64,000 bases of DNA from a virus (IMGVR_UViG_2724679226_000002:1-64000); one strand, 5' to 3'. Numbered from the stretch's first letter, positions 15,605 to 49,915 are shown. Program-made: numbers and translations. Notes: a model not told the origin generated them from the sequence alone.

Positions 15605-16312
15605 ACGCTACTTAACTTTACTCAACACTTTTTAAACATAAGTGTAAATAACTGATAGTTTCTAATCATGTTGCCGACGTCAGGAACGTGTTCAAAACTT
15701 CAATTCGAGGGCTCTTAGATTGGATACAAAACTTAGACAACTATGATAAGAAACTATATTTTAAGGAGTAGAGCCCTCTAATTCAAGGGGCAAAACGAGA
15801 GAATGCTCGCACAAATGCTTACCTCATTCTGAGACTCTGTTTGCCCTGTTGCAACATTGAACCAAGTTTTTGCTTAAAGTCTATTGAACTTGGAAAAAAG
15901 ACTTTGTAAAGAGAGTCGGAAGAATTGAATTTCCCGGAGCTACCTACACCACTACTCTCATATTAAAGCGTCCTTAACCTGGTCCACTGCTTCAATTTCT
16001 CTCTAGCTATTCAATGGTCCGAGTTTTCCTCGCAAGTATCACTCGTTAAGAGAGAGCCGTTTGCTCGTGCGTTAAGGACTTTATCATTCCGTTTTCGGAT
16101 TCGCACGGTAACCCTTTATTCGTACAAAACAATCCTCGTAATTCTTGACGACTGCAAACACTCGAATAAATCCGGTAGTGATTTGTCAATATCGATATGA
16201 CGGGAACAGCAAGGCTCGAACTTGCACTCTCCTTGGGTTAAACAACTTAGCCTGAAAATTTATGACTAAATCTAGCAAGGTGCTATTTCCAAATTAAACT
16301 ATGTTCCCATAA
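15605..16312. ncRNA. candidate large structured non-coding RNA in an ORF-free, GC-elevated segment
   Basis: No ORF of 60 aa or more on any frame across about 1.5 kb. It is visibly GC-richer than the flanks. It has several long-range complementary pairs, such as CGAGGGCTC at 15706 with GAGCCCTC at 15771, and GGGCAAAAC at 15788 with GTTTGCCC at 15839. It also has a perfect T-arm-like hairpin (GCAAG-TTCGAGC-CTTGC, minus strand, 16209-16225) bounded by GGGAACA at 16202 and TGTTCCC at 16303. Confidence 0.35.
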
Positions 16313-16313
16313 A

Positions 16314-16398
16314 TGGCGGAAGTAACAAGAATTGAACTTGTAAAGGAATTATCCTCACAGATTAGCAATCTGTTGCCATACCATTAGGCGATACTTCC
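16314..16398 (-). tRNA. tRNA-Ser (anticodon GCU) with a long variable arm and an encoded CCA
   Basis: Minus-strand sequence GGAAGTATCGCCTAATGGTATGGCAACAGATTGCTAATCTGTGAGGATAATTCCTTTACAAGTTCAATTCTTGTTACTTCCGCCA. Folds by hand to a cloverleaf with a 7-bp acceptor stem, a 5-bp anticodon stem, a type-II variable arm and a 5-bp T stem. Confidence 0.85.
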
Positions 16399-34655: not shown

Positions 34656-35201
34656 ATGGATATAGTAGATATTTATAAAGAATGCGGCGATTTCCATGAA
34701 GCAGTACGAAGAAGTGGATTGCCACCATTAATAGCGCATATAAAGCTTATGAAAAATGGCGTTTTAAAGATACAGGATAAAATAAAATACGGAACAAGAG
34801 CAAATGCTTTAGGAGGAAAGGCGGAGGAATTGTTTCAGAAATTAGTTCCAGAGGCAGTGGATGCCAACAAATATTGGAAAAAGAATAATCCTATTTATGA
34901 TTTTGTGTATAAAGGATTGACAATTGATGTTAAATATTCATCTATACGTCCACATACTACAACGATTTGTTGGTGTGCAAGAGTAAGTGGAGAACAAGAT
35001 GTTACAGTGATATTTTTAGAAAGAGAACGTGGAACAGAGTTAAAAGATCCGTATATTTTGCTGATACCTAGAGGATTTGTGAATGTAAAAAATACTTTAC
35101 ATATTTCATGCTCAGGTTCATGGTTTTCTGATTTTCAGATAGAAATTGAAGAGTTAAAAGATGTTTTAGAACAATATGTGGAGGCTATGAATGGGGTATG
35201 A
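34656..35201 (+). CDS. hypothetical protein, possibly a PD-(D/E)XK-type nuclease partner of the adjacent methyltransferase
   Basis: 181 aa with a D...(D/E)XK-like pattern (IYDFVYKGLTIDVKYSS). It overlaps the methyltransferase start by 11 nt. Confidence 0.35.
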   Translation: MDIVDIYKECGDFHEAVRRSGLPPLIAHIKLMKNGVLKIQDKIKYGTRANALGGKAEELFQKLVPEAVDANKYWKKNNPIYDFVYKGLTIDVKYSSIRPHTTTICWCARVSGEQDVTVIFLERERGTELKDPYILLIPRGFVNVKNTLHISCSGSWFSDFQIEIEELKDVLEQYVEAMNGV

Positions 35202-36177
35202 TATTAAATCTATAAAAAAAGAGTTTGCTTCTAAAGGAATATTTTATACTCCACCAGAATTAGCAGAATTTTTAAAAAGTTTTGTGGATATAGATACTGA
35301 TGAGGTATACGATCCAACTTGTGGACATGGTTCGTTACTATCTGTATTTGGAGATGAAGTTAAGAAATATGGTCAAGACATAAATCCTGTCGCAATTGAA
35401 TATATCAAAGAAAATTTTCCACATTTTCATGTAGAACTTGGAGATACTATCCAAGAAGATAAATTTTCAGAAAAGAAATTTAAAGTTATTCTTGCGAATC
35501 CTCCCTTTTCTGTAAAATATGAACCTAATGAAGAAATGTTATTGGATAAAAGATTTAAAGATTGTGGAATATTATCTCCAGCAAGTAAAGCTGACTATAT
35601 GTTTAATTTGCATATTTTACATAAGTTGAAAGAAAATGGAATAGCGGTAGTAATGAATTTTCCAGGCATATTATATCGAAAAAATAAAGAGGGAGAAATT
35701 CGGAAGTGGCTAATTGAGAATAACTATATTGATACAATTGTTCATATAGCTGGAAAGAAATTTGAGGATACTAACATTGCGACTTGTTTGATTATTTATA
35801 GAAAGAATAAAGTAACTACAGATATTAAATTTGTGGATAGTGAATTTAACTTAGAAAGAATGGTTTCTTTAGAAGAAATACGAGAAAACAACTATAATTT
35901 ATCTATAAGTACATATGTGCAAAAAGAAGAGCAGAAAGAGGAAATTAACATTGATGATGTAAATGAAGAAGCTAATCGTCATTTTTTAATTCATTTAGAA
36001 GAAACGTTAAAAGTAAATTTGTTTTTAGTACAATCCTTAGAGGCGAAAATAGATTACGAAATGTTCTTGAATAAAATAGGAGGATTGGTAAGAAAATATC
36101 GGAGTAAGTTTAAAAATAGAGAAAAGGAGGAAATTCCTAAGCAATGGGAAGAACAACTCCTTTTATTTGATAAATAA
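35191..36177 (+). CDS. N6-adenine DNA methyltransferase (gamma-class)
   Basis: Motif I reads DPTCGHGSLL and motif IV reads ILANPPFSVKY. The N-terminus (FYTPPELAEFL) fits the family. Confidence 0.8.
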   Translation: MGYDIKSIKKEFASKGIFYTPPELAEFLKSFVDIDTDEVYDPTCGHGSLLSVFGDEVKKYGQDINPVAIEYIKENFPHFHVELGDTIQEDKFSEKKFKVILANPPFSVKYEPNEEMLLDKRFKDCGILSPASKADYMFNLHILHKLKENGIAVVMNFPGILYRKNKEGEIRKWLIENNYIDTIVHIAGKKFEDTNIATCLIIYRKNKVTTDIKFVDSEFNLERMVSLEEIRENNYNLSISTYVQKEEQKEEINIDDVNEEANRHFLIHLEETLKVNLFLVQSLEAKIDYEMFLNKIGGLVRKYRSKFKNREKEEIPKQWEEQLLLFDK

Positions 36178-37933: not shown

Positions 37934-39511
37934 ATGATGTTTAATAAAGATTTTTATCCTACTCCGTGTAATTTAGCAGAAAAGATGATTTCTAAAATAG
38001 ATATGAAAGACTATTATTTTAGTATCTTGGAGCCATCTGCTGGGAAAGGAGATATACTAGATGTTTTGTTAGATAAAAATAAATACAGTAGAAAGAATTT
38101 AAGCATAGACTGCATTGAAATTCAACCTGAGCTAAGAAGTATCTTGAAAGAAAAAAAATATAGAGTTGTATATAATGATTTTTTAAGTTTTTATAGCCAA
38201 AAGAAATATGACATTATTATTATGAATCCACCTTTTAATAATGGAGATAAGCATTTATTAAAAGCCATTTCTATTATAAAGAAATATGGTGGACAAATAG
38301 TATGTTTATTAAATGCAGAAACCATTAAGAATCCATATACAATTTATAGAAAAGATTTACTAAGACAATTAGAAGAAAATAATGCAGAAATTCAATTTTT
38401 GCAAGATGAATTTAAAAATGCAGAAAGAAGTACAAATGTAGAGATAGCTTTAATTTATCTAAATATTCCAGAAAAAATTGAAGAAAGTGATTTATTAAAG
38501 AATTTAAAAAAAGCAGAAAAAGAAAAAGAGTATTGTTTTGAAACGAAGCAAGTAACGCATAATGATTTTTTAAAAAATATTATAGAGCATTATAATTTTG
38601 AAGTAAACGCTGGAGTAGAATTTTTAAAAGAATATGAACGAATTAAACCATTTTTTAAAAGTGATTTCGATGTAAAATATGAAAGATACTCAATTTCAGT
38701 TAAAGTAGGAGAAAATGGTTATGAAAGCGATAAAATAAATGATTTTATTTCTCTTGTTCGTAAAAAATACTGGAAACAACTAATTAGTAGTGATAAATTC
38801 AGACAATTATTTACAAGCAATATTTTAGATGAATTATGGAATAAAATTGAAGAATTGAAAGACTATGATTTTAATGAATACAATATTATGGAAATTCAAA
38901 AAGAATTAAATAGGAACTTAGTAAAATCTGTAGAAGAAACTATTTTATCTTTATTTGATAAATTATCTTACCAACATTCATATCGAGATGATTATGGAAA
39001 GAACATACATTATTACAATGGTTGGAAAACAAATAAGGCTTATAAAATTAATAAAAAGGTAATTATGCCGTTGAATGCTTGGTCTAGCTGGCATAATCGA
39101 ATGGAAACTTACCATATTATTGGAAAGCTTTTAGATATAGAAAAGGTTTTAAATTACTTAAATTATAAGGAAATTGAAAGTATTGATTTAAATAAGAGAA
39201 TTGAACAATGCTTTTCACAAGGAATTACTAAAAACATTGAATGCAAATATTTTACTTTAACATTTTATAAAAAAGGAACTTGTCATTTGGTGTTTAAGGA
39301 TGATGATTTGTTATTAAAATTTAATATCTTTGGAAGTCAGAAAAAAGGCTGGCTACCTCATGGATATGGGAAGAAAAACTATGAAGAAATGGAGCAAGGA
39401 GAGAAAGTAGTTATTGATTCCTTTCAAGGGAAAACAGAGTATGAGAAAGTAATTGGTGATAAAAAGAATTATATCATAGATGTTAATAGAAGTTTATTAG
39501 AACTGAAGTAA
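37934..39511 (+). CDS. DNA methyltransferase with a C-terminal DUF4942-like extension
   Basis: FYPTPCNLAEKM, EPSAGKGDIL and IIIMNPPFNNG are class-I SAM-dependent N6A or N4C methyltransferase motifs. A 330-aa C-terminal domain follows. Confidence 0.65.
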   Translation: MMFNKDFYPTPCNLAEKMISKIDMKDYYFSILEPSAGKGDILDVLLDKNKYSRKNLSIDCIEIQPELRSILKEKKYRVVYNDFLSFYSQKKYDIIIMNPPFNNGDKHLLKAISIIKKYGGQIVCLLNAETIKNPYTIYRKDLLRQLEENNAEIQFLQDEFKNAERSTNVEIALIYLNIPEKIEESDLLKNLKKAEKEKEYCFETKQVTHNDFLKNIIEHYNFEVNAGVEFLKEYERIKPFFKSDFDVKYERYSISVKVGENGYESDKINDFISLVRKKYWKQLISSDKFRQLFTSNILDELWNKIEELKDYDFNEYNIMEIQKELNRNLVKSVEETILSLFDKLSYQHSYRDDYGKNIHYYNGWKTNKAYKINKKVIMPLNAWSSWHNRMETYHIIGKLLDIEKVLNYLNYKEIESIDLNKRIEQCFSQGITKNIECKYFTLTFYKKGTCHLVFKDDDLLLKFNIFGSQKKGWLPHGYGKKNYEEMEQGEKVVIDSFQGKTEYEKVIGDKKNYIIDVNRSLLELK

Positions 39512-40813: not shown

Positions 40814-40999
40814 ATGAAAACTTTAAAAGAAATGTGCGACATTATGTTAGAAAAAAGAATTATAGAGAGTTTCGAAATTACAGAATTTGAAGAAATTATT
40901 GCATATACAGACGAGGGAATACTGCTACAAGAAAAAGATATCCAAAGGATTTATAACATAACTTTAGGAAAAAAGGAGAATAAAAATGAATGTGTGTGA
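40814..40999 (+). CDS. hypothetical protein
   Basis: 61-aa ORF. Confidence 0.4.
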   Translation: MKTLKEMCDIMLEKRIIESFEITEFEEIIAYTDEGILLQEKDIQRIYNITLGKKENKNECV

Positions 41000-42257
41000 A
41001 GCAGCAAGAAAAAGAATTCAATATGCTATTTCTGAATTTGACAATATTATTGTATCTTTTTCTGGAGGAAAAGATTCGGGAGTGATGTTAAACTTAACTT
41101 TAGATATTGCAAAAGAAATGAATTGTTTACATAAAATTGGAGTATACCATATGGATTATGAAGCTCAATATCAAGCTACTACTGATTATGTTACAGAAGT
41201 GTTTCATTCTTTACCAATAGAAGTGAAAAAATACTGGGTATGTTTACCAATTAAAGCTCAATGCAGTGTTTCAATGTTTCAATCATTTTGGCAGCCTTGG
41301 AAGTTTGAAGATAAAGAAATATGGTGTAGAAAATTACCTGAAAATTCCATCAATGAGGAGAATTTTCCATATTCTTTTGATTATGAGATTTCAGATTATC
41401 AATTTAATATTAAATTTGGCAAAGAAATAGCAAAGAAAGGAAAAACTTGTTTTTTAATTGGAATTAGAACACAGGAAAGTTTACATCGATACAAAGCAGT
41501 AAATAAGTTTGATGATAAAAATGAGTATGAAGGGAAAAAATATACCACTAAAATAAGTGAGAATCTTGTAAATATTTATCCAATTTACGATTGGCTTGTT
41601 GATGACATATGGATTTATAATTCTAAATTTCAAAAGAGGTATAACAAAATCTATGACTTGTTCTATCAAGCAGGATTAAAAGTAAATGCTATGAGGGTTG
41701 CAAGCCCTTTTAACGATGCAGCACAAGACAGTTTAAAACTGTATAAAGTAATTGATCCTAACAATTGGGGAAAATTAGTCGGAAGAGTAAATGGAGTAAA
41801 TTTTACTGGATTGTACGGTGGAACTACAGCAATGGGTTGGAAAACAATTAAGAAGCCGGATCATTTCACATGGAAAGAATATATGTATTTTTTGCTGGAC
41901 ACTTTGCCTAAACATACAAGAGAAATTTATCTAAAAAAATTAGAAACTTCCATAAAATATTGGACTGTAACTGGGGGAGCATTACCCAAAGAAATTGCAA
42001 AAGAATTAACAGTAGAACATGAAAATTTAGGAAAACCAAAAAATAATAGAAATTATACAACAGAATACGATGTAATACGTTTTAAGGATTATTTAGATGA
42101 AATAGAAATAAGCAAGCCTAATTTATTACCTACATACAAAAGAATGTGTATAGCAATACTTAAAAATGACACAAGCTGTAAAACATTAGGCTTTGGACAA
42201 ACAAAATATGAATTAGAGAAAAGAAAAAATATTATGGAAAAATATAGAAATTTATAG
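40986..42257 (+). CDS. PAPS-reductase-family (IbrA-like, DUF3440-type) protein
   Basis: IVSFSGGKDSGVMLNL is the PP-loop ATP-pyrophosphatase motif. A long C-terminal domain follows. The gene is paired with a ParB-like gene downstream. Confidence 0.65.
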   Translation: MNVCEAARKRIQYAISEFDNIIVSFSGGKDSGVMLNLTLDIAKEMNCLHKIGVYHMDYEAQYQATTDYVTEVFHSLPIEVKKYWVCLPIKAQCSVSMFQSFWQPWKFEDKEIWCRKLPENSINEENFPYSFDYEISDYQFNIKFGKEIAKKGKTCFLIGIRTQESLHRYKAVNKFDDKNEYEGKKYTTKISENLVNIYPIYDWLVDDIWIYNSKFQKRYNKIYDLFYQAGLKVNAMRVASPFNDAAQDSLKLYKVIDPNNWGKLVGRVNGVNFTGLYGGTTAMGWKTIKKPDHFTWKEYMYFLLDTLPKHTREIYLKKLETSIKYWTVTGGALPKEIAKELTVEHENLGKPKNNRNYTTEYDVIRFKDYLDEIEISKPNLLPTYKRMCIAILKNDTSCKTLGFGQTKYELEKRKNIMEKYRNL

Positions 42258-42267
42258 GAGGTATATT

Positions 42268-42774
42268 ATGTATCAAAGTCCAGTTTATAACATAAAAAAA
42301 GTTCCAATTGAGAAAGTTCAAGCAAATTCATACAATCCAAATAGTGTTGCTCCCCCAGAAATGAAATTACTTTATCAGTCAATTAAAAACGATGGCTATA
42401 CAATGCCTATTGTTTGCTATTATTTAAAAGATATTGATAAGTACGAAATTGTGGATGGATTTCACAGATATACAATTATGAAGAAGCATAAAGATATTTA
42501 TGAGAGAGAAAATGGTTGCTTACCTGTTGTAGTTATAGATAAAGACATTTCAAACAGGATGGCTTCTACAATACGTCATAATAGAGCAAGAGGAAGTCAT
42601 TCAATTGAGTTGATGACAAATATTGTATCAGAGTTAGTAGAAAGTGGAATGAGTGATGCCTGGATATTAAAAAACATTGGAATGGATGCTGATGAATTAC
42701 TGAGATTAAAACAATTGTCGGGATTAGCCAGCTTATTTAAAGATAGAGAATTCAGTAAATCGGAAGAGGAGTAA
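42268..42774 (+). CDS. ParB N-terminal-domain (sulfiredoxin-like) protein, IbrB-like
   Basis: NSYNPNSV...IVDGFHRY is ParB/Srx-like. Confidence 0.65.
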   Translation: MYQSPVYNIKKVPIEKVQANSYNPNSVAPPEMKLLYQSIKNDGYTMPIVCYYLKDIDKYEIVDGFHRYTIMKKHKDIYERENGCLPVVVIDKDISNRMASTIRHNRARGSHSIELMTNIVSELVESGMSDAWILKNIGMDADELLRLKQLSGLASLFKDREFSKSEEE

Positions 42775-42779
42775 AAAAA

Positions 42780-43160
42780 ATGTGGTTTGAAATTTATTTA
42801 CAGTATTCTGACATTATTTTAGAAACAGAAAAAGCAGTTTTGATTAGATTACCATATGAAAACATAGAGGAAGCTTGTTATTTTTATTATCCGAAAGCAT
42901 TGATAAAAGAAAAAAAGGGTAAAAAATATTTAATATTTATGTGGGAAAAACCATTTGTGAGAATTTATTATCGAGAAGGTAAAAGAGGAAAAAGAAAATA
43001 TATTTACACAAATGAAGATAGAAGTTTACGAGAAATTATGTATGATTTCGAAGATAGAACACCAACTCATTATGAGCAAAAAACAGAATATTTTAAGAGA
43101 AGAGCAAGCAAAATAACAATTCAGAAAGTGGAGGTTCCAGATGATTTACGAGATGAGTAA
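42780..43160 (+). CDS. hypothetical protein
   Basis: 126-aa ORF. Confidence 0.45.
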   Translation: MWFEIYLQYSDIILETEKAVLIRLPYENIEEACYFYYPKALIKEKKGKKYLIFMWEKPFVRIYYREGKRGKRKYIYTNEDRSLREIMYDFEDRTPTHYEQKTEYFKRRASKITIQKVEVPDDLRDE

Positions 43161-44337
43161 AGAGCAATTAGAGGCAGTTGAAAAATTAAAAAAATTAAAA
43201 GTAGGAGCTTTATTTATGGAAACTGGAACAGGTAAAACAATGACTGCTCTACAGTTATTTAATGACAGATTTCAAGCAAATAAAACAAATCATTTAATTT
43301 GGCTTGCGCCATTGAATACAAAAGACAATTTTTGGAAAGAAGTAAAAAAATATGATTTTGAAAATTTACCAATTACATTTTATGGAATAGAATCTATTCG
43401 GCAAAGTGGAAGAATTTTCTTAGAAGTTCTTAACTTAGCGAAAGAATTAGAAACATCATTTATTGTTTTAGATGAGAGTTTAAAAATAAAAAATTACGTT
43501 CAAGTTTCTCAAAGAATTATTAAAATTGGAAGATACTGTAAATATAGGCTGATTTTAAATGGTACATTAATATCTAAGAACTTTTTAGATCTTTACAATC
43601 AATTAGATTTTTTAAGTCCTAAGATTTTAAATATGAGTTTTCTAGAGTTCAGAAATCGTTTTACAGATGAAATTATTGTAAAGAAAAATGGAAGAGAATT
43701 AAAAAGAATTGTTTCCGACAATGCAAATGAAGAAGCTTTATTTAAAATGATTGACAATTATATTTATCGTTGTGAATTAGTTTTAAACTTAGAACGAGAG
43801 TATGTGAAATACTATTATGATTATTTTGAAAAAGAAGAAGAGTATAACAAAATTAAAGATAGAATGCTAGATGACTTGGAAAGAGGAGGATTTCATTTCT
43901 TAGAATATGCTCAAAAATTACAATCTATTTATGCAGTAACAGAAGATAAGAAGAAAGTTTTTGAAGAGATTTTAAAGGAATATCCAAAATGTATTGTATT
44001 CTGTAAATTTATAGAATCTCAAGAATATTTAAAAGAGAAATACCCGAATATTTTAGTGTTAAGTTATCAAAAACATAGTTTTGGACTCAATCTACAAGAA
44101 TACAATGTAATAGTATTTTGGGATAAGACTTTTGATTATGCTACTATAGAACAAGCAGAAGCTCGTATTTTTAGAATTGGACAAACAAAGTCTTGCACTT
44201 ATATAAGAATGCAATGTGATTGCGGGTTAGATAAAATGATAGCTGGAAATATCTGTAAAAAAGGAAATATGTTAGAAAATTTAAAAATAGAATTTATGAA
44301 ACAAATAGAAGAGAGAAAAAAGGCTAGTTTGACCTAG
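43141..44337 (+). CDS. compact SNF2-family helicase
   Basis: Motif I (METGTGKTMTAL), motif II (LDESLKIKN), LILNGTLISKNFLDLYNQL, and a C-terminal QAEARIFRIGQTK box. Confidence 0.7.
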   Translation: MIYEMSKEQLEAVEKLKKLKVGALFMETGTGKTMTALQLFNDRFQANKTNHLIWLAPLNTKDNFWKEVKKYDFENLPITFYGIESIRQSGRIFLEVLNLAKELETSFIVLDESLKIKNYVQVSQRIIKIGRYCKYRLILNGTLISKNFLDLYNQLDFLSPKILNMSFLEFRNRFTDEIIVKKNGRELKRIVSDNANEEALFKMIDNYIYRCELVLNLEREYVKYYYDYFEKEEEYNKIKDRMLDDLERGGFHFLEYAQKLQSIYAVTEDKKKVFEEILKEYPKCIVFCKFIESQEYLKEKYPNILVLSYQKHSFGLNLQEYNVIVFWDKTFDYATIEQAEARIFRIGQTKSCTYIRMQCDCGLDKMIAGNICKKGNMLENLKIEFMKQIEERKKASLT

Positions 44338-45683: not shown

Positions 45684-45705
45684 TGTTCCCAAAAAAATAG
45701 GAACA
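45684..45705. promoter_or_regulatory. palindromic operator TGTTCCCA-N8-GGAACA upstream of the first ParB-like gene
   Basis: TGTTCCCAAAAAAATAGGAACA. A near-identical palindrome lies at 49119-49140 upstream of the second ParB-like gene. Confidence 0.5.
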
Positions 45706-45732
45706 TTTTTCCTATTATGAGGAGGTGTAGAA

Positions 45733-46218
45733 ATGAAAATTGAAAAAAGAAAGTTAGAAACATTAAAACCTTATGCAAATAATGCGAAGGAACATCCGGA
45801 ATGGCAAATTGAACAGATAAAAGAAAGTATCAAGCGATTTGGGTTTAACGATCCAATTGCTATTGATGAACAAGGAAACATTATTGAAGGTCATGGAAGA
45901 TACTTAGCAAGCATACAACTAGAATTAAAAGAAGTTGATTGCATTGTGCTAGGACATTTGACAGAACTAGAGAAAAAGGCATACATTATAGCTCACAATA
46001 AGCTAACGATGAACACTGGATTTGATTTATCTATTTTAGAGGAAGAATTATCTAATTTAAAAGAGAATAAAATCGATTTAGTAATTACCGGATTTTCTGA
46101 ATATGAATTAGAGACATTACTATCTAGTAATGAATTAGAGTTAGATGAGGTTCTATCTGACGACGAAAAGAGCAAACAAGAAGAAAAAAGATGTCCTCAT
46201 TGTGGAGGGATTCTATGA
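45733..46218 (+). CDS. ParB-like nuclease-domain protein, copy 1
   Basis: LKPYANNAKEHPEWQIEQIKESIKRFGFNDPIAIDE..IIEGHGRY. A C-terminal CPHCGG suggests a zinc ribbon. A paralog lies at 49185. Confidence 0.7.
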   Translation: MKIEKRKLETLKPYANNAKEHPEWQIEQIKESIKRFGFNDPIAIDEQGNIIEGHGRYLASIQLELKEVDCIVLGHLTELEKKAYIIAHNKLTMNTGFDLSILEEELSNLKENKIDLVITGFSEYELETLLSSNELELDEVLSDDEKSKQEEKRCPHCGGIL

Positions 46219-47018
46219 ATTTGTATCTTGCTAGTTTAGAGAATGACTATGTAACAATTGAAACTATGATTGATGTAAAACCCTTGTTTGTTTTAGGAAG
46301 TTTTCACTATTTGCAGAAATTAAAACCAGGCATATTGCAACAGTATTTTTCATATATTAACAGCGATGATTGTAAGGGATTTATTTTAGATAGTGGAGCA
46401 TTTAGTATGTTAAATGCAAAAGGAGGAGCAGAATCATTTCTTAAAAACTTGGATGACTATATTGAGAACTATATAGAATTTATTAAATTCTGGAATGTTA
46501 AGAATTTTATAGAATTAGATATTGATCCATTGGTAGGGTACTCAAAAGTTCTCAAAATAAGAGAGAAAATAGAAAAAGAAGTAGGAAGAAAAAGTATTCC
46601 TGTTTGGCATATTTCAAGAGGAATAAATGAATGGAAAAACACAGTAAAACTATATGAATATGTGGCAATTGGTGGAATTGTTACGAAGGAGATTAAGAAA
46701 AAAGATTATAAAAAAATATTCCTACCATTGCTAAAAATAGCTAGAAGTGAAAAATGTAATGTTCATGGGCTTGGTTTTACAGGAAAAGAAATCAATGATT
46801 TTCCATTTTTTTCTTGTGATAGTTCTACCTGGACGACTATAAATAGATTTGGAAGTATGCCTATTTTTTCTATTACAGAAAAATGCATTAAAAATAAGAG
46901 TATTTCAGAAAAAAGAAAGATAAAACTTGGAAATGAAACAAGAATGAAATTAACTAAGTATTCGATTATGGAATGGAAAAAATTTCAGATTTTTTTATTT
47001 AAAGGAGAAGCGAATTAA
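46215..47018 (+). CDS. tRNA-guanine-transglycosylase-like protein (candidate DpdA-type DNA 7-deazaguanine transglycosylase)
   Basis: FILDSGAFSMLN resembles the TGT catalytic LDSGGFQ motif. GSFHYL and a later GGIV fit the TIM-barrel layout. It is co-located with a YhhQ transporter. The assignment is moderate, from motif memory only. Confidence 0.5.
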   Translation: MNLYLASLENDYVTIETMIDVKPLFVLGSFHYLQKLKPGILQQYFSYINSDDCKGFILDSGAFSMLNAKGGAESFLKNLDDYIENYIEFIKFWNVKNFIELDIDPLVGYSKVLKIREKIEKEVGRKSIPVWHISRGINEWKNTVKLYEYVAIGGIVTKEIKKKDYKKIFLPLLKIARSEKCNVHGLGFTGKEINDFPFFSCDSSTWTTINRFGSMPIFSITEKCIKNKSISEKRKIKLGNETRMKLTKYSIMEWKKFQIFLFKGEAN

Positions 47019-47453
47019 ATGAGAAAAATTGTTTTAATTAATTGTGTAAAGAAAAAAAGAGCAGGAAAACATAAAGCCAAAGATTTATATGTGTCTACTT
47101 TGTTTAGGTATCAATTAAAATATGCGAAACTTTTTTCAGAAGAAATTTATATTTTATCTGCGAAATACGGACTTTTGGAATTGGATGATTATATTGAAAG
47201 TTATGATTTAACATTAAACAATATGAGTAATGATTCTAGGAAAAAATGGACCTGTAAAGTTTTAAAACAATTGCAAGAAAAAAATATTACTAAGGAGGAT
47301 AGAATTGTTTTTTTATGCGGTAAAAAATATTTAGAATATCTTGCTGTGTATTTTAAGAATAATGAGATTCCTTTAAAAACAATGGGATTAGGAGAAAGGT
47401 TAAGATTTTTAAAAAAAGAAATAATGAAGAGGAGAAGGAATGAAAGAAAATAA
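47019..47453 (+). CDS. hypothetical protein inside the DpdA-YhhQ cassette
   Basis: 144 aa reading IVLINCVKKKRAGKHKAKDLY...YILSAKYGLL. It is coupled on both sides: a 1-nt gap to the DpdA-like gene and a 14-nt overlap with yhhQ. Confidence 0.5.
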   Translation: MRKIVLINCVKKKRAGKHKAKDLYVSTLFRYQLKYAKLFSEEIYILSAKYGLLELDDYIESYDLTLNNMSNDSRKKWTCKVLKQLQEKNITKEDRIVFLCGKKYLEYLAVYFKNNEIPLKTMGLGERLRFLKKEIMKRRRNERK

Positions 47454-48042
47454 GTTAATGTTTTTAAATTGTCTTTTTATTACATGTTTAATTATTGCTA
47501 ATGTAATATCTAGTAAATTAGTGATTTTAGGAAATTACTTTGTTGTTCCAGCAGCGGTAGTAAGTTATGGAATTACATTTTTATGTACAGATATTATAGG
47601 GGAAATATGGGGAAAAGAAGAAGCAAATAAAGCAGTCAAGAGAGGATTGCTAACACAAATTATAGCAACTTTCTTGATTTTATTTGCAATCAAAATTCCA
47701 ATAGCACCATTTATGTTAGACTTTCAAGAGAAATTTCAAGCTGTTCTTGGAGGAAGTTTAAGAATGACATTAGCAAGTTTGGCAGCATATGTAGTAGCAC
47801 AAACAAATGATGTTTTTATTTTTCATAAATTGAAAACACTAAATGGAGGAAAATATAAATGGATTCGTAATAATGTTAGCACAATATGCAGTCAATTTTT
47901 GGATACTTCTATTTTTATCACAATTGCATTTTATGGAGTAGTACCAGATTTGTTTCTTGTTATTTATAGTCAATTTTTTATAAAAGTTATAATTGCTTTA
48001 TTAGACACGCCATTCTTTTATCTATTTACAAAAAGTGAATAA
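47440..48042 (+). CDS. yhhQ: YhhQ/DUF165-family queuosine-precursor (preQ0/preQ1) transporter
   Basis: GITFLCTDIIGEIWG, DVFIFHKLK and FLDTSIFITIAFYG parallel E. coli YhhQ (FLATDL, DVHVFNRLR, SDTLAFFFIAF). Six hydrophobic segments. Confidence 0.75.
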   Translation: MKENKLMFLNCLFITCLIIANVISSKLVILGNYFVVPAAVVSYGITFLCTDIIGEIWGKEEANKAVKRGLLTQIIATFLILFAIKIPIAPFMLDFQEKFQAVLGGSLRMTLASLAAYVVAQTNDVFIFHKLKTLNGGKYKWIRNNVSTICSQFLDTSIFITIAFYGVVPDLFLVIYSQFFIKVIIALLDTPFFYLFTKSE

Positions 48043-48094
48043 AAATAATAAAAAAAGACAGAATATATTACAATTTTCTGTCTTTTTTTCAATT

Positions 48095-48301
48095 TCATTC
48101 TTCCTCTAATCTCTTCCAACCAGCGTCTATATTTTCAAAAAGCCACTCGTTGAAAATTTCTTGCAATTTATCTTCGTCTTCAAAAATTTTCTTTGCTTTT
48201 TCTTCTGAAAAACCATAGTCTTCTATTAAATCAACATCTTCTTCTACCTCTGCTCCTACATATCTTGTTGAAGCATAAAAATTTACTTTGTATTTACTCA
48301 T
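48095..48301 (-). CDS. small acidic protein
   Basis: 68 aa and highly acidic (EVEEDVDLIEDYGFSEE). Confidence 0.45.
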   Translation of the reverse strand: MSKYKVNFYASTRYVGAEVEEDVDLIEDYGFSEEKAKKIFEDEDKLQEIFNEWLFENIDAGWKRLEEE

Positions 48302-48515
48302 TTTTTCCTCCTTTTTTATTTTTTTTAATAACGCATTTTCGGCTACGTTATTCGATATAAAAGTTTTTTACTCCCTTTCGGCATAAAAAACTTTTATATC
48401 TTTTTCGGCCTGAAAATCTTCGCTAGCTAGATAATCAAGTTCGTCTAAATAATAGCCGTCTGAATTTAGGTATAAAATAGCTAACAACTTAAAGGACTGT
48501 TAACGTATCCTTTTT

Positions 48516-48803
48516 TTATAGACCGAAAAGTTGATTTCTCAACCCTCGGTTTCCCCAAATCATACGAATTGCTCTTTGTAATTCGTTGTGCCAACGAATT
48601 GAGGCTGGAGCAATTTCTTTATGAGTTGTCTCAGTTTCGGCTCTGACAACTTTTCCTTTTTCAAGGTAGAAAATTGTAGAATGTACTACAAATCCACCTT
48701 TGATAAGTCTGAATTGGTATTGATGTTTATACCAATCTTTTTTTACATCAGGGAAGAATTCTCCCCTGATGTTTTTCCTTGTTATTTTGTTTTCTTTTCT
48801 CAT
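48516..48803 (-). CDS. hypothetical protein
   Basis: The start is trimmed to MRKENK, which follows AAGGGGGTG. Confidence 0.4.
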   Translation of the reverse strand: MRKENKITRKNIRGEFFPDVKKDWYKHQYQFRLIKGGFVVHSTIFYLEKGKVVRAETETTHKEIAPASIRWHNELQRAIRMIWGNRGLRNQLFGL

Positions 48804-48807
48804 TTTT

Positions 48808-48981
48808 CTACACCCCCTTGTATTCCCAAGTATTATACGATATAACTTCTTCCCCATTTAACAGATAAACCTTATGTCTAAGGTATCCGTCATAATGACC
48901 GTTGTATTTCCATTCGGAGTACTTTACAAATACTCCTCCCATTTCTTCGATTTCTTTGTTTGATAATTTTATTTGTTTCAT
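48808..48981 (-). CDS. small hypothetical protein
   Basis: 57 aa reading MKQIKLSNKEIEEMGGVFVKYSEWKYNGHYDGYLRHKVYLLNGEEV. It is coupled to the downstream gene. Not in the ORF track. Confidence 0.35.
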   Translation of the reverse strand: MKQIKLSNKEIEEMGGVFVKYSEWKYNGHYDGYLRHKVYLLNGEEVISYNTWEYKGV

Positions 48982-49118
48982 TTTGTTCCTCCTCTTAATC
49001 TCTTTTCTTGAATATAGTATACACTATATTCAAATGTATGTCAACAACTTTTTTTATTTTTTTTAAATATTTTTTTATTTTTCAAAAAAGCTAGTAAAAT
49101 CATAGAAAAATAACGAAA

Positions 49119-49140
49119 TGTTCCCATTTTTTTGGGAACA
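49119..49140. promoter_or_regulatory. palindromic operator TGTTCCCA-N6-TGGGAACA upstream of the second ParB-like gene
   Basis: ATGTTCCCATTTTTTTGGGAACAT has perfect 8-bp arms. Confidence 0.55.
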
Positions 49141-49184
49141 TTTTCTCTATTATAGAGAGTATGTTTTTATAAGGAGAAGTTGCG

Positions 49185-49673
49185 ATGAAAATTGAAAAAA
49201 TTTCTTTAGAGAAGTTGAAAATGTATGAAAATAATGCAAAAGAACACCCAGATTGGCAGGTAAAACAAATTATGAAGTCAATTGAAGAGTTTGGATTTAA
49301 CGATCCTATTGCAGTTGACGAAAACAATGAAATTATAGAGGGACATGGTAGGTATTTAGCGTTAAAAGAACTTGGAATAAAATCATGTGATTGTATTCGA
49401 TTATCTCATTTAACAGAAAATCAGAAGAGAGCATACATTATAGCTCACAATAAGTTAACAATGAATACTGGATTTAATTCTGAAATTCTTGCTTATGAAA
49501 TGAATGCTTTAAAAGTAGATAATTTTGATTTAAGTGTATTGGGATTTGGAGAAGCAGAACTGAATAGCATATTTAATAATTTTGAAGATGATGACGAGGA
49601 TGAACCAGAAATTATACAACCAGAGAAAAAATTGATTACTTGCCCTCTTTGTGGAGGGGAATTTGAAAAATGA
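49185..49673 (+). CDS. ParB-like nuclease-domain protein, copy 2
   Basis: Collinear with copy 1 (KEHPDWQVKQIMKSIEEFGFNDPIAVDE..IIEGHGRY...AYIIAHNKLTMNTGF...CPLCGG). Confidence 0.7.
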   Translation: MKIEKISLEKLKMYENNAKEHPDWQVKQIMKSIEEFGFNDPIAVDENNEIIEGHGRYLALKELGIKSCDCIRLSHLTENQKRAYIIAHNKLTMNTGFNSEILAYEMNALKVDNFDLSVLGFGEAELNSIFNNFEDDDEDEPEIIQPEKKLITCPLCGGEFEK

Positions 49674-49915
49674 TAGAGTTAGCGAGTGAAAAATATAGGA
49701 TTATTTCTATAAAAAGGACAGAAAGTGAAATATGGAGGGTTCTGATACCAGGAGATATTTTAGAAATAAAAACAACAATTACAAGAACGAAGAGAATGGA
49801 TGGGAATCAAAGTGCTATGCAGATGAAAATCTATGCAAATGGTGTATATATGGGGAATTGTTCTGCAACAAGAACATATAATGCTTTACAAAAAATAAAA
49901 TTAGAAAAAATATAA
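49670..49915 (+). CDS. hypothetical protein
   Basis: 81-aa ORF coupled to ParB-like copy 2. Confidence 0.45.
   Translation: MIELASEKYRIISIKRTESEIWRVLIPGDILEIKTTITRTKRMDGNQSAMQMKIYANGVYMGNCSATRTYNALQKIKLEKI

Follow-up and report, generated by a model that had tools for sequence, protein, structure and literature searches.

Organization of the locus

The stretch analyzed here, IMGVR_UViG_2724679226_000002:1-64000, comprises 64,000 nucleotides (nt) of viral DNA and is referred to throughout as the window. It carries a compact cassette in which a small ParB-like protein (ParB1), a DpdA-type DNA-guanine transglycosylase, a stand-alone DUF6884 protein of 144 amino acids (aa) and a YhhQ-type transporter are encoded in succession; a paralog of the first protein, ParB2, follows further downstream (Table 1). 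An earlier note, made from the DNA sequence alone, had interpreted the region as a phage cassette for 7-deazaguanine modification of DNA. This interpretation is now well supported by the fold, profile matches and motifs of the DpdA protein, by the scores of the transporter against family cut-offs, and by the recurrence of the 144-aa gene in comparable loci. The open reading frames (ORFs) and both palindromes are located where that note had placed them.

Table 1. Features of the modification cassette and its immediate flanks in the window
Feature	Position	Strand	Description
Palindrome 1	45684-45705		TGTTCC-N10-GGAACA; divergent intergenic region
ParB1	45733-46218	+	161 aa; small member of the ParB/Srx superfamily, assigned by phrog_620, weak Pfam ParB_N, motif and position before DpdA
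DpdA-type DNA-guanine transglycosylase	46215-47018	+	267 aa; no Zn motif
Stand-alone DUF6884 protein	47019-47453	+	144 aa; YaaA-like fold; CxxxK and LSAxxG motifs
YhhQ/QPTR (COG1738) queuosine-precursor transporter	47440-48042	+	200 aa; PF02592, TIGR00697
Bidirectional intrinsic terminator	48050-48089		dG -14.3 kcal/mol, z -6.1
Variable stretch	48095-48981	-	three small ORFs of 68 aa (DUF7167), 113 aa and 57 aa
Palindrome 2	49119-49140		TGTTCCCA-N6-TGGGAACA; divergent intergenic region
ParB2	49185-49673	+	162 aa; ParB1 paralog, same family

Across the studied region the window is ~95% identical to Fusobacterium phage phiFN37 (OR492271.1, 85 kb), and proteins identical to the 144-aa protein and to ParB2 are encoded on many contigs of Fusobacterium necrophorum, one of them 2.29 Mb long. 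The window is a prophage of F. necrophorum of the phiFN37 type, and the recurrence of identical proteins on so many contigs indicates that phages of this type are common temperate phages of the species. The four plus-strand genes of the cassette are annotated in phiFN37 as “ParB-like partition protein,” “queuine tRNA-ribosyltransferase,” “hypothetical protein” and “queosine precursor transporter.”

The junctions between these four genes are tight. The stop codon of ParB1 overlaps the start codon of DpdA as ATGA (4 nt), with a GGAGGG Shine-Dalgarno sequence 7 nt upstream of the latter. The DpdA stop codon directly abuts the start of the 144-aa gene, leaving a gap of 0 nt where 1 nt had been reported, and yhhQ overlaps the 144-aa gene by 14 nt, as reported. 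Together with the strong bidirectional terminator that closes the series after yhhQ, this spacing indicates a single compact operon; its promoter would lie a short way past palindrome 1, and transcription would run as far as the terminator. A scan of the cassette with Rfam models revealed no riboswitch or other RNA family, and none of the preQ1 type before yhhQ.

Three minus-strand ORFs (48095-48301, 48516-48857 and 48808-48981), and not two small genes as previously described, lie between yhhQ and ParB2. This stretch is the sole strain-variable part of the region (L001:10496-11469; L243:6189-7000): the minus-strand genes of phiFN37 are only 69-70% identical or are replaced, and L243 lacks both the DUF7167 gene and the 57-aa ORF. 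These ORFs probably stand outside the modification module.

A transglycosylase of the phage DpdA type

No Pfam or NCBIfam model matched the DpdA protein, which corresponds to PHROG 887 (E = 4e-46). Sequence searches of the PDB, with the protein itself and with a profile of 36 homologs, returned nothing, and a comparison of folds was therefore needed. It identified a (beta/alpha)8 barrel of the tRNA-guanine transglycosylase (TGT) type, with the DNA enzyme DpdA as the nearest solved structure, in agreement with the TGT-like assignment proposed earlier. When 50,697 phage genomes were searched with tblastn, a close relative was found in phiFN37 only; the validated DpdA1 enzymes of phages 9g (E = 5e-11) and Iggy (E = 2e-8) were recovered at ~27% identity, and alignment of the 36-homolog profile with the 9g protein gave an hhalign probability of 99.3%. 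The motifs LDSGAF, PVWH, VHGLG and DSTSW of the profile pair with motifs of 9g DpdA that include LDSGAF, VHGFG and CDSSSW.

Residues D59-S-G-A-F63, E100-L-D102-x-D104, H132, H184-G-L186 and D202-S203 are invariant in the 36 homologs, so that the LDSGAF motif singled out in the earlier note is present and strictly conserved. In order and spacing, D59/F63, D102/D104, H132, L186 and D202 follow the catalytic set D95/F99/D130/H181/L236/D256 of bacterial DpdA (PMC10164549). The structural zinc site CxCxxCx22H, conserved in TGTs and in bacterial DpdA, is absent: there is neither a CxCxxC motif nor any conserved cysteine. Since the motif is likewise lacking in 9g and Iggy DpdA, its loss excludes the protein from the bacterial subfamily but not from phage DpdA. 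A 235-aa variant of the protein in other strains turned out to be merely a different start-codon call on identical DNA.

For the analysis of gene neighborhoods, 80 viral loci were retrieved by means of the DpdA profile from a confirmed set of at least 481 viral contigs, and neighboring ORFs were clustered. Prophages carrying this DpdA clade occur in Veillonella, Faecalibacterium, Prevotella, Alistipes, Enterococcus, Staphylococcus and Fusobacterium. Some loci encode two DpdA paralogs in tandem (L021:669-2196, L123:3396-4831 and L285:4138-5762).

ParB-like proteins as proposed partners of DNA-modifying enzymes

ParB1 matches phrog_620 (E = 2e-53) and, weakly, Pfam ParB_N. It carries the motif E52-G53-H-G-R56-Y-L-A59, of the GxxRxxA type, and the C-terminal CxxC that is usual in the family; G53 and A59 are invariant, and H54 and R56 are conserved in at least 90% of members. 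Judged by these signatures, it contains an N-terminal domain of the ParB/Srx fold with a [DE]GxxR / GxxRxxA motif of the kind that binds nucleoside triphosphates (NTPs).

A ParB-like gene lies immediately upstream of dpdA in 63 of the 80 viral loci and second upstream in another 6. Where at least 600 nt of upstream sequence was present (67 informative loci), ORF calling placed it directly before dpdA in 63, and tblastn recovered it in the remaining four. An independent scan of bacterial and archaeal genomes, restricted to one genome per species, gave the same arrangement in 66 of 72 loci, and the commonest junction between the two genes was a 4-nt overlap. Adjacency to dpdA and inheritance together with it were thus found in both locus collections. 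Because ParB1 is translationally coupled to DpdA, and because a ParB-like gene stands upstream in essentially every informative locus, we regard ParB1 as a member of the module and not as its flank.

Bacterial DpdA requires DpdB, an ATPase of the ParB superfamily, for the insertion of 7-cyano-7-deazaguanine (preQ0) into DNA (PMC10164549). By analogy with DpdB, ParB1 is proposed to be the partner of the phage DpdA. A ParB-like gene near dpdA in mycobacteriophages has been suggested in passing to be a homolog of dpdB (PMC6392294), and the main papers on phage 7-deazaguanine systems nowhere mention ParB.

ParB2 is 56% identical to ParB1 (BLASTP E = 1e-59) and is nearer than ParB1 to 47 of the 69 ParB-like proteins linked to DpdA. 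Downstream of it come an 81-aa ORF that overlaps it (49670-49915) and then small ORFs only, and no recognizable enzyme partner is encoded among these downstream genes. Among its 73 nearest viral relatives, eight are followed by DpdA, and 42 are long ORFs (>260 aa) that join the ParB domain to a DNA methyltransferase (L162-L241); others precede separate genes for N6- or C5-methyltransferases. Genes of the ParB1/ParB2 type usually stand directly before the genes for both terminase subunits, the small and the large (L162-L241).

The same position before terS and terL is taken by the phage ParB-domain DNA methyltransferases (phrog_498; PADLOC MTase_II), whose N-terminal ~150 aa correspond to the ParB1/ParB2 domain; both proteins match phrog_498 (E = 1e-47 to 1e-49) and PADLOC MTase_II (E = 1e-31). 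These systems differ from the window cassette in the enzyme that accompanies the ParB domain, as a fusion or as the next gene: it is an N6-, N4- or C5-methyltransferase and not a coupled transglycosylase. Since outside dpdA loci the family occurs mostly in fusions with DNA methyltransferases or ahead of them, we suggest that it provides general partners of DNA-modifying enzymes; the label “partition protein” looks misleading for it.

A stand-alone DUF6884 protein

The 144-aa protein, described as unknown in the earlier note, matches PF21818 (DUF6884) over its full length (E = 6e-41), with a weaker match to YaaA, and thus carries a domain of the DpdC type. Curators of Pfam describe DUF6884 as having the YaaA-like “cantaloupe” fold with the motifs CxxxK and LSAxxG (PMC11701544); the corresponding residues C9, K13 and L46-S-A-K-Y-G51 show no, or almost no, variation in 33 relatives. 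DpdC of the bacterial dpd islands is itself a DUF6884 protein (PMC12235509) and converts DNA containing deoxy-preQ0 (dPreQ0) into DNA containing dADG (2'-deoxy-7-amido-7-deazaguanosine), for which it needs neither DpdA nor DpdB (PMC10164549). The phage protein is matched by five PADLOC models of DpdC (best E = 7e-9, residues 13-75), as are 29 of the 33 relatives by such models. No NCBIfam model matched, and a phmmer search of the PDB yielded spurious matches to designed repeat proteins only. On the evidence of these profiles, the family is a sister of the catalytic core of DpdC and not an ortholog of DpdC.

The genomic context of the family points in the same direction. Within 5 kb of its 80 closest viral relatives, dpdA was found in 45 cases, queC in 47, yhhQ in 25 and a ParB-like gene in 23, and ~57 relatives lie in a recognizable 7-deazaguanine cluster made up of dpdA, queC/D/E, folE or yhhQ, usually between dpdA and queC or yhhQ. 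The gene is therefore a recurrent component of DpdA cassettes, as had been anticipated. DUF6884 proteins also occur in four DpdA prophage loci of bacterial genomes, including Staphylococcus intermedius NCTC 11048. Among cultured phages a close relative is present in phiFN37 only, and all homologs are annotated as “hypothetical.” By analogy with DpdC, the 144-aa protein is proposed to act on dPreQ0 to yield dADG.

Two further observations concern this family. In the S. intermedius prophage (L267; NZ_PPQH01000029.1), which resides in a type-collection strain, genes for a ParB-like protein, DpdA, DUF6884, QueC, QueD, QueE and FolE stand in a row. The PADLOC model PDC-M57A represents component A of the “phage defence candidate” PDC-M57, for which nothing was found in the literature; here its counterpart is located inside a counter-defence module of a phage.

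Supply of the 7-deazaguanine base

YhhQ scores far above the cut-offs of PF02592 (Vut_1; E = 1e-47, 162.7 bits vs. 27.2) and TIGR00697 (153.1 bits vs. 50.95), and below that of the E. coli-specific model NF008406 (52 vs. 252 bits), so that its substrate is best given as preQ0/preQ1 or queuine. The region examined in the window contains no queCDE or folE. A report on oral communities (PMC11130926) lists Fusobacterium, at genus level, as consuming queuosine precursors, with which an importer carried by the phage fits well. Given this report and the lack of biosynthetic genes, the imported base is most likely preQ0.

Downstream of dpdA, 66 of 68 viral loci of the clade (those with at least 3 kb of downstream sequence) carry queC/D/E with folE, or yhhQ, followed by terminase genes, and the same pattern of preQ0 supply is seen in the genome loci. 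These counts, taken with those for the upstream gene, define a conserved unit that consists of a ParB-like protein, DpdA and a preQ0 supply, located just before the packaging genes.

A proposed pathway and its alternatives

The cassette combines traits of two known groups of systems. With the bacterial DpdA-DpdB-DpdC system of Salmonella Montevideo (PMC10164549) it shares a TGT-fold transglycosylase, an adjoining partner of the ParB superfamily and a DUF6884 protein, and some bacterial dpd islands also contain yhhQ (PMC12235509). However, the phage proteins are miniaturized and not orthologous: DpdA has 267 aa instead of 413 and lacks the Zn site and Ins8, ParB1 lacks the DndB/DpdB signature, and the DUF6884 protein has 144 aa instead of ~310. 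The restriction half (dpdD-K) is missing as well, and the setting is a prophage, upstream of packaging genes. The DpdA1 systems of Enterobacteria phage 9g, CAjan/Seurat and Pseudomonas phage Iggy (PMC6884629, PMC10484667) resemble the cassette in the motifs LDSGAF, VHGxG and DSSxW, in the missing Zn site and in the location beside preQ0 supply genes. They differ in having neither a ParB-like neighbor nor a DUF6884 gene, and they synthesize preQ0 whereas the window phage encodes an importer only.

We suggest the following pathway, which we consider probable as a whole. YhhQ would import the 7-deazaguanine base, most likely preQ0, and DpdA would exchange guanines in the phage DNA for it by a TGT-type double displacement, with D59 as the acid/base and D202 as the nucleophile. 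ParB1, translationally coupled to DpdA, would serve as its DNA-binding and probably NTP-dependent partner, as DpdB does for bacterial DpdA. The DUF6884 protein, as a stand-alone catalytic domain of DpdC, would then hydrate the nitrile of the DNA-bound preQ0 to give dADG, and phage DNA modified in this way would resist restriction by the host.

Several points weigh against this pathway, and its individual steps should be interpreted with caution. The literature that could be searched contained no analysis of phiFN37 DNA. Specificity varies within the YhhQ family, between preQ0/preQ1 and queuine. ParB1 and ParB2 match neither PADLOC DpdB nor Pfam DndB at E <= 0.1, their matches in these databases being confined to a weak ParB_N and MTase_II; with 161 aa against roughly 400 aa for DpdB (from the monomer mass measured with SAXS and MALS), ParB1 does not belong to the DpdB/DndB family. 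The dpdA genes of 9g and Iggy have no ParB neighbor, and the 9g DpdA1 is active in E. coli without any ParB. The overlap of the 144-aa protein with DpdC spans ~63 residues and not the full length of ~310 aa, and all 33 relatives fit PDC-M57A (138 positions) far better than DpdC. About 23 of its 80 viral relatives lie outside recognizable deazaguanine clusters; more distant homologs in cultured phages of Caulobacter, Bradyrhizobium and Microbacterium have no annotated deazaguanine context, in genomes whose annotation is uninformative on this point. Other members of DUF6884, such as YfjM of Bacillus subtilis, have been tied to the binding of DNA lesions and not to deazaguanine chemistry (PMC11701544).

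There are two alternatives to parts of the pathway, each of which we hold to be unlikely. In the first, preQ0 (or preQ1) is inserted, and the DUF6884 protein acts as a helper that flips bases or binds lesions, for instance by shielding or processing abasic or covalent intermediates of transglycosylation, so that the product stays dPreQ0. The link drawn by the Pfam curators between YfjM and abasic and RNA-base lesions, with a model of base flipping, lends this some weight, as do the closer kinship of the phage family to PDC-M57A, the short overlap with DpdC and a length under half that of the bacterial protein. Against it, the conserved Cys-Lys pair and LSAxxG suggest catalysis, the family clusters tightly with queC and dpdA, and the sole DUF6884 protein characterized in a deazaguanine context, DpdC, is the enzyme that makes dADG from dPreQ0. 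E. coli YaaA (PDB 5CAJ) and YfjM, for their part, are encoded on the chromosome, serve in stress or repair and are unconnected with 7-deazaguanine genes.

The second alternative, with an equally modest claim to be correct, is that ParB1 is unrelated to the function of DpdA and is a transcription factor, partition protein or nuclease that shares the position before the terminase genes, while DpdA acts alone. The independence of 9g DpdA indeed shows that phage DpdAs need no ParB partner intrinsically, and the missing neighbor in 9g and Iggy would limit any such requirement to the clade represented in the window. Members of the family also exist without dpdA, and the palindrome before each ParB gene could be an autoregulatory operator. 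However, in two collections that are independent of each other, 92-100% of loci have a ParB-like gene directly before dpdA, 4 nt being the modal overlap, and members of the family that are not next to dpdA are for the most part DNA methyltransferase fusions, which a shared position alone hardly explains.

Two further explanations can be set aside as very improbable. The proposal in the earlier note that the DpdA, 144-aa and YhhQ genes were inserted as a unit by recombination between two flanking ParB copies draws on the two paralogous genes with similar upstream sequences on either side of the region, but ParB1 belongs to the module, the ParB-DpdA pair dates back to the ancestor of the whole clade, the two copies have diverged to 56% identity and bear no trace of recent exchange, no empty site with a single ParB was found among 24 F. 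necrophorum contigs encoding ParB2 (the arrangement is complete in 24 of 24), and the closest relatives outside this species have one ParB-DpdA pair and no second ParB. Action on host tRNA, with queuosine-type modification raised or altered during infection, would accord with the TGT superfamily, the phiFN37 annotation and the role of bacterial YhhQ in the salvage of precursors for tRNA queuosine, but is scarcely credible for a protein whose nearest solved structure and nearest characterized sequences are DNA-modifying, which has neither the Zn subdomain of TGT nor its C-terminal parts that bind tRNA, and whose constant partners, ParB and DUF6884, come from families that bind DNA.

Palindromes upstream of the ParB genes

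The pattern TGTTCC-N(6-14)-GGAACA occurs exactly twice in the 64 kb, compared with 0.01 occurrences expected from shuffled sequences. The right arm of each palindrome ends 7 nt before a TATTAT box resembling a -10 element (45713-45718 and 49148-49153), so that the palindromes overlap the -35/spacer region of two paralogous promoters; the likeness between the two upstream regions extends downstream beyond them (GGAACATTTTYYCTATTAT), and both are partly kept in phiFN37. As RNA, palindrome 2 is predicted to form a 12-bp hairpin (-16.4 kcal/mol). The arms TGTTCC and GGAACA are the outer hexamers of canonical parS. The simplest reading of this arrangement, and a plausible one, is that the palindromes constitute a promoter-operator element shared by two ParB-led transcription units and possibly bound by ParB.

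A second palindrome, AATAGGAA-N5-TTCCTATT (45696-45716), extends over both the -10-like box and the right arm of palindrome 1. Read as its reverse complement, palindrome 1 agrees with palindrome 2 at 21 of 22 positions, and L243 has exactly that variant before ParB2. The palindrome was also considered as a feature of the whole ParB family, which was rejected after 156 regions upstream of ParB genes had been scanned: apart from the F. necrophorum lineage, a single further lineage contained TGTTCC...GGAACA. In an unrelated lineage (L013:5463-5478, L020:134-149 and L028:38-53), the start codon of ParB is preceded at a distance of 27 nt by a perfect canonical parS, TGTTCCACGTGGAACA; this lineage carries a ParB-DpdA-queCDE operon whose ParB is 42-45% identical to those of the window.

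A bolder and distinctly speculative scenario, to which we assign a low probability, is that the small ParBs are NTP-gated DNA clamps. After loading at a parS-like palindrome that heads an operon just before the packaging genes, they would slide over the phage DNA and bring along, or activate, a modifying enzyme, here DpdA and in relatives mostly a fused methyltransferase. Such ParB-delivered DNA modification would be general, common to phage DpdA, to the ParB-methyltransferase fusions and to bacterial DpdB and DndB, and the DUF6884 protein would complete an unrecognized phage route to dADG.

Implications for phage DNA modification

Modification of phage DNA with 7-deazaguanines is an established strategy against restriction, for which the published pathways comprise DpdA1-4, Gat-QueC, ArcS, QueF-L and DpdL/M/N. 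Neither an enzyme of the DpdC type nor a partner of the DpdB type is listed for phages in the accessible literature, where an earlier mention in a review is possible. As far as this literature shows, therefore, DpdA and YhhQ are ordinary parts of such a cassette, whereas the nearly obligate ParB partner and the recurrent DpdC-like protein have not been described for phages.

If the proposed pathway is correct, bacterial and phage systems would be united mechanistically by a large DpdA clade whose ParB-like partner is almost obligatory, and phages would possess a compact enzyme that makes dADG after insertion of the base. Proteins annotated as “ParB-like partition protein” in phages would then often be accessory factors of DNA-modifying enzymes. 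The predicted dADG pathway is open to direct testing in two cultured systems, phiFN37 and S. intermedius NCTC 11048. The question is also relevant to phage therapy against F. necrophorum, as modified DNA alters sensitivity to restriction and CRISPR.

Genomic surroundings

Upstream of the cassette, the window encodes an N6 DNA methylase (35191-36177; PF02384, E = 2e-52), a Dam-like methyltransferase fused to DUF4942 (37934-39511) and an SNF2-type helicase (43141-44337). Between them, at 40986-42774, a phosphoadenosine phosphosulfate (PAPS) reductase/DUF3440 protein, similar to IbrA and DndC (PF11922, E = 1e-80), stands before a third ParB-like protein, ParB3, which scores above the Pfam cut-off for ParB_N. 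This pair also adjoins a DUF6884/queCDE/folE cluster in viral locus L154, and a PAPS reductase, a YaaA-like protein and DpdA have been reported together in the haloarchaeal virus HRTV-29. The pair may represent a second ParB-partnered DNA-modification module, and the window from ~35 to 50 kb looks like an island devoted to DNA modification and anti-restriction.

Further upstream, a tRNA-Ser(GCT) gene is located on the minus strand (16314-16398), adjacent to an Rfam tRNA match of unusual length (16201-16308; 42.7 bits) that was not called by ARAGORN; together, 16201-16398 may be a duplicated tRNA end that marks the attachment site of the prophage.

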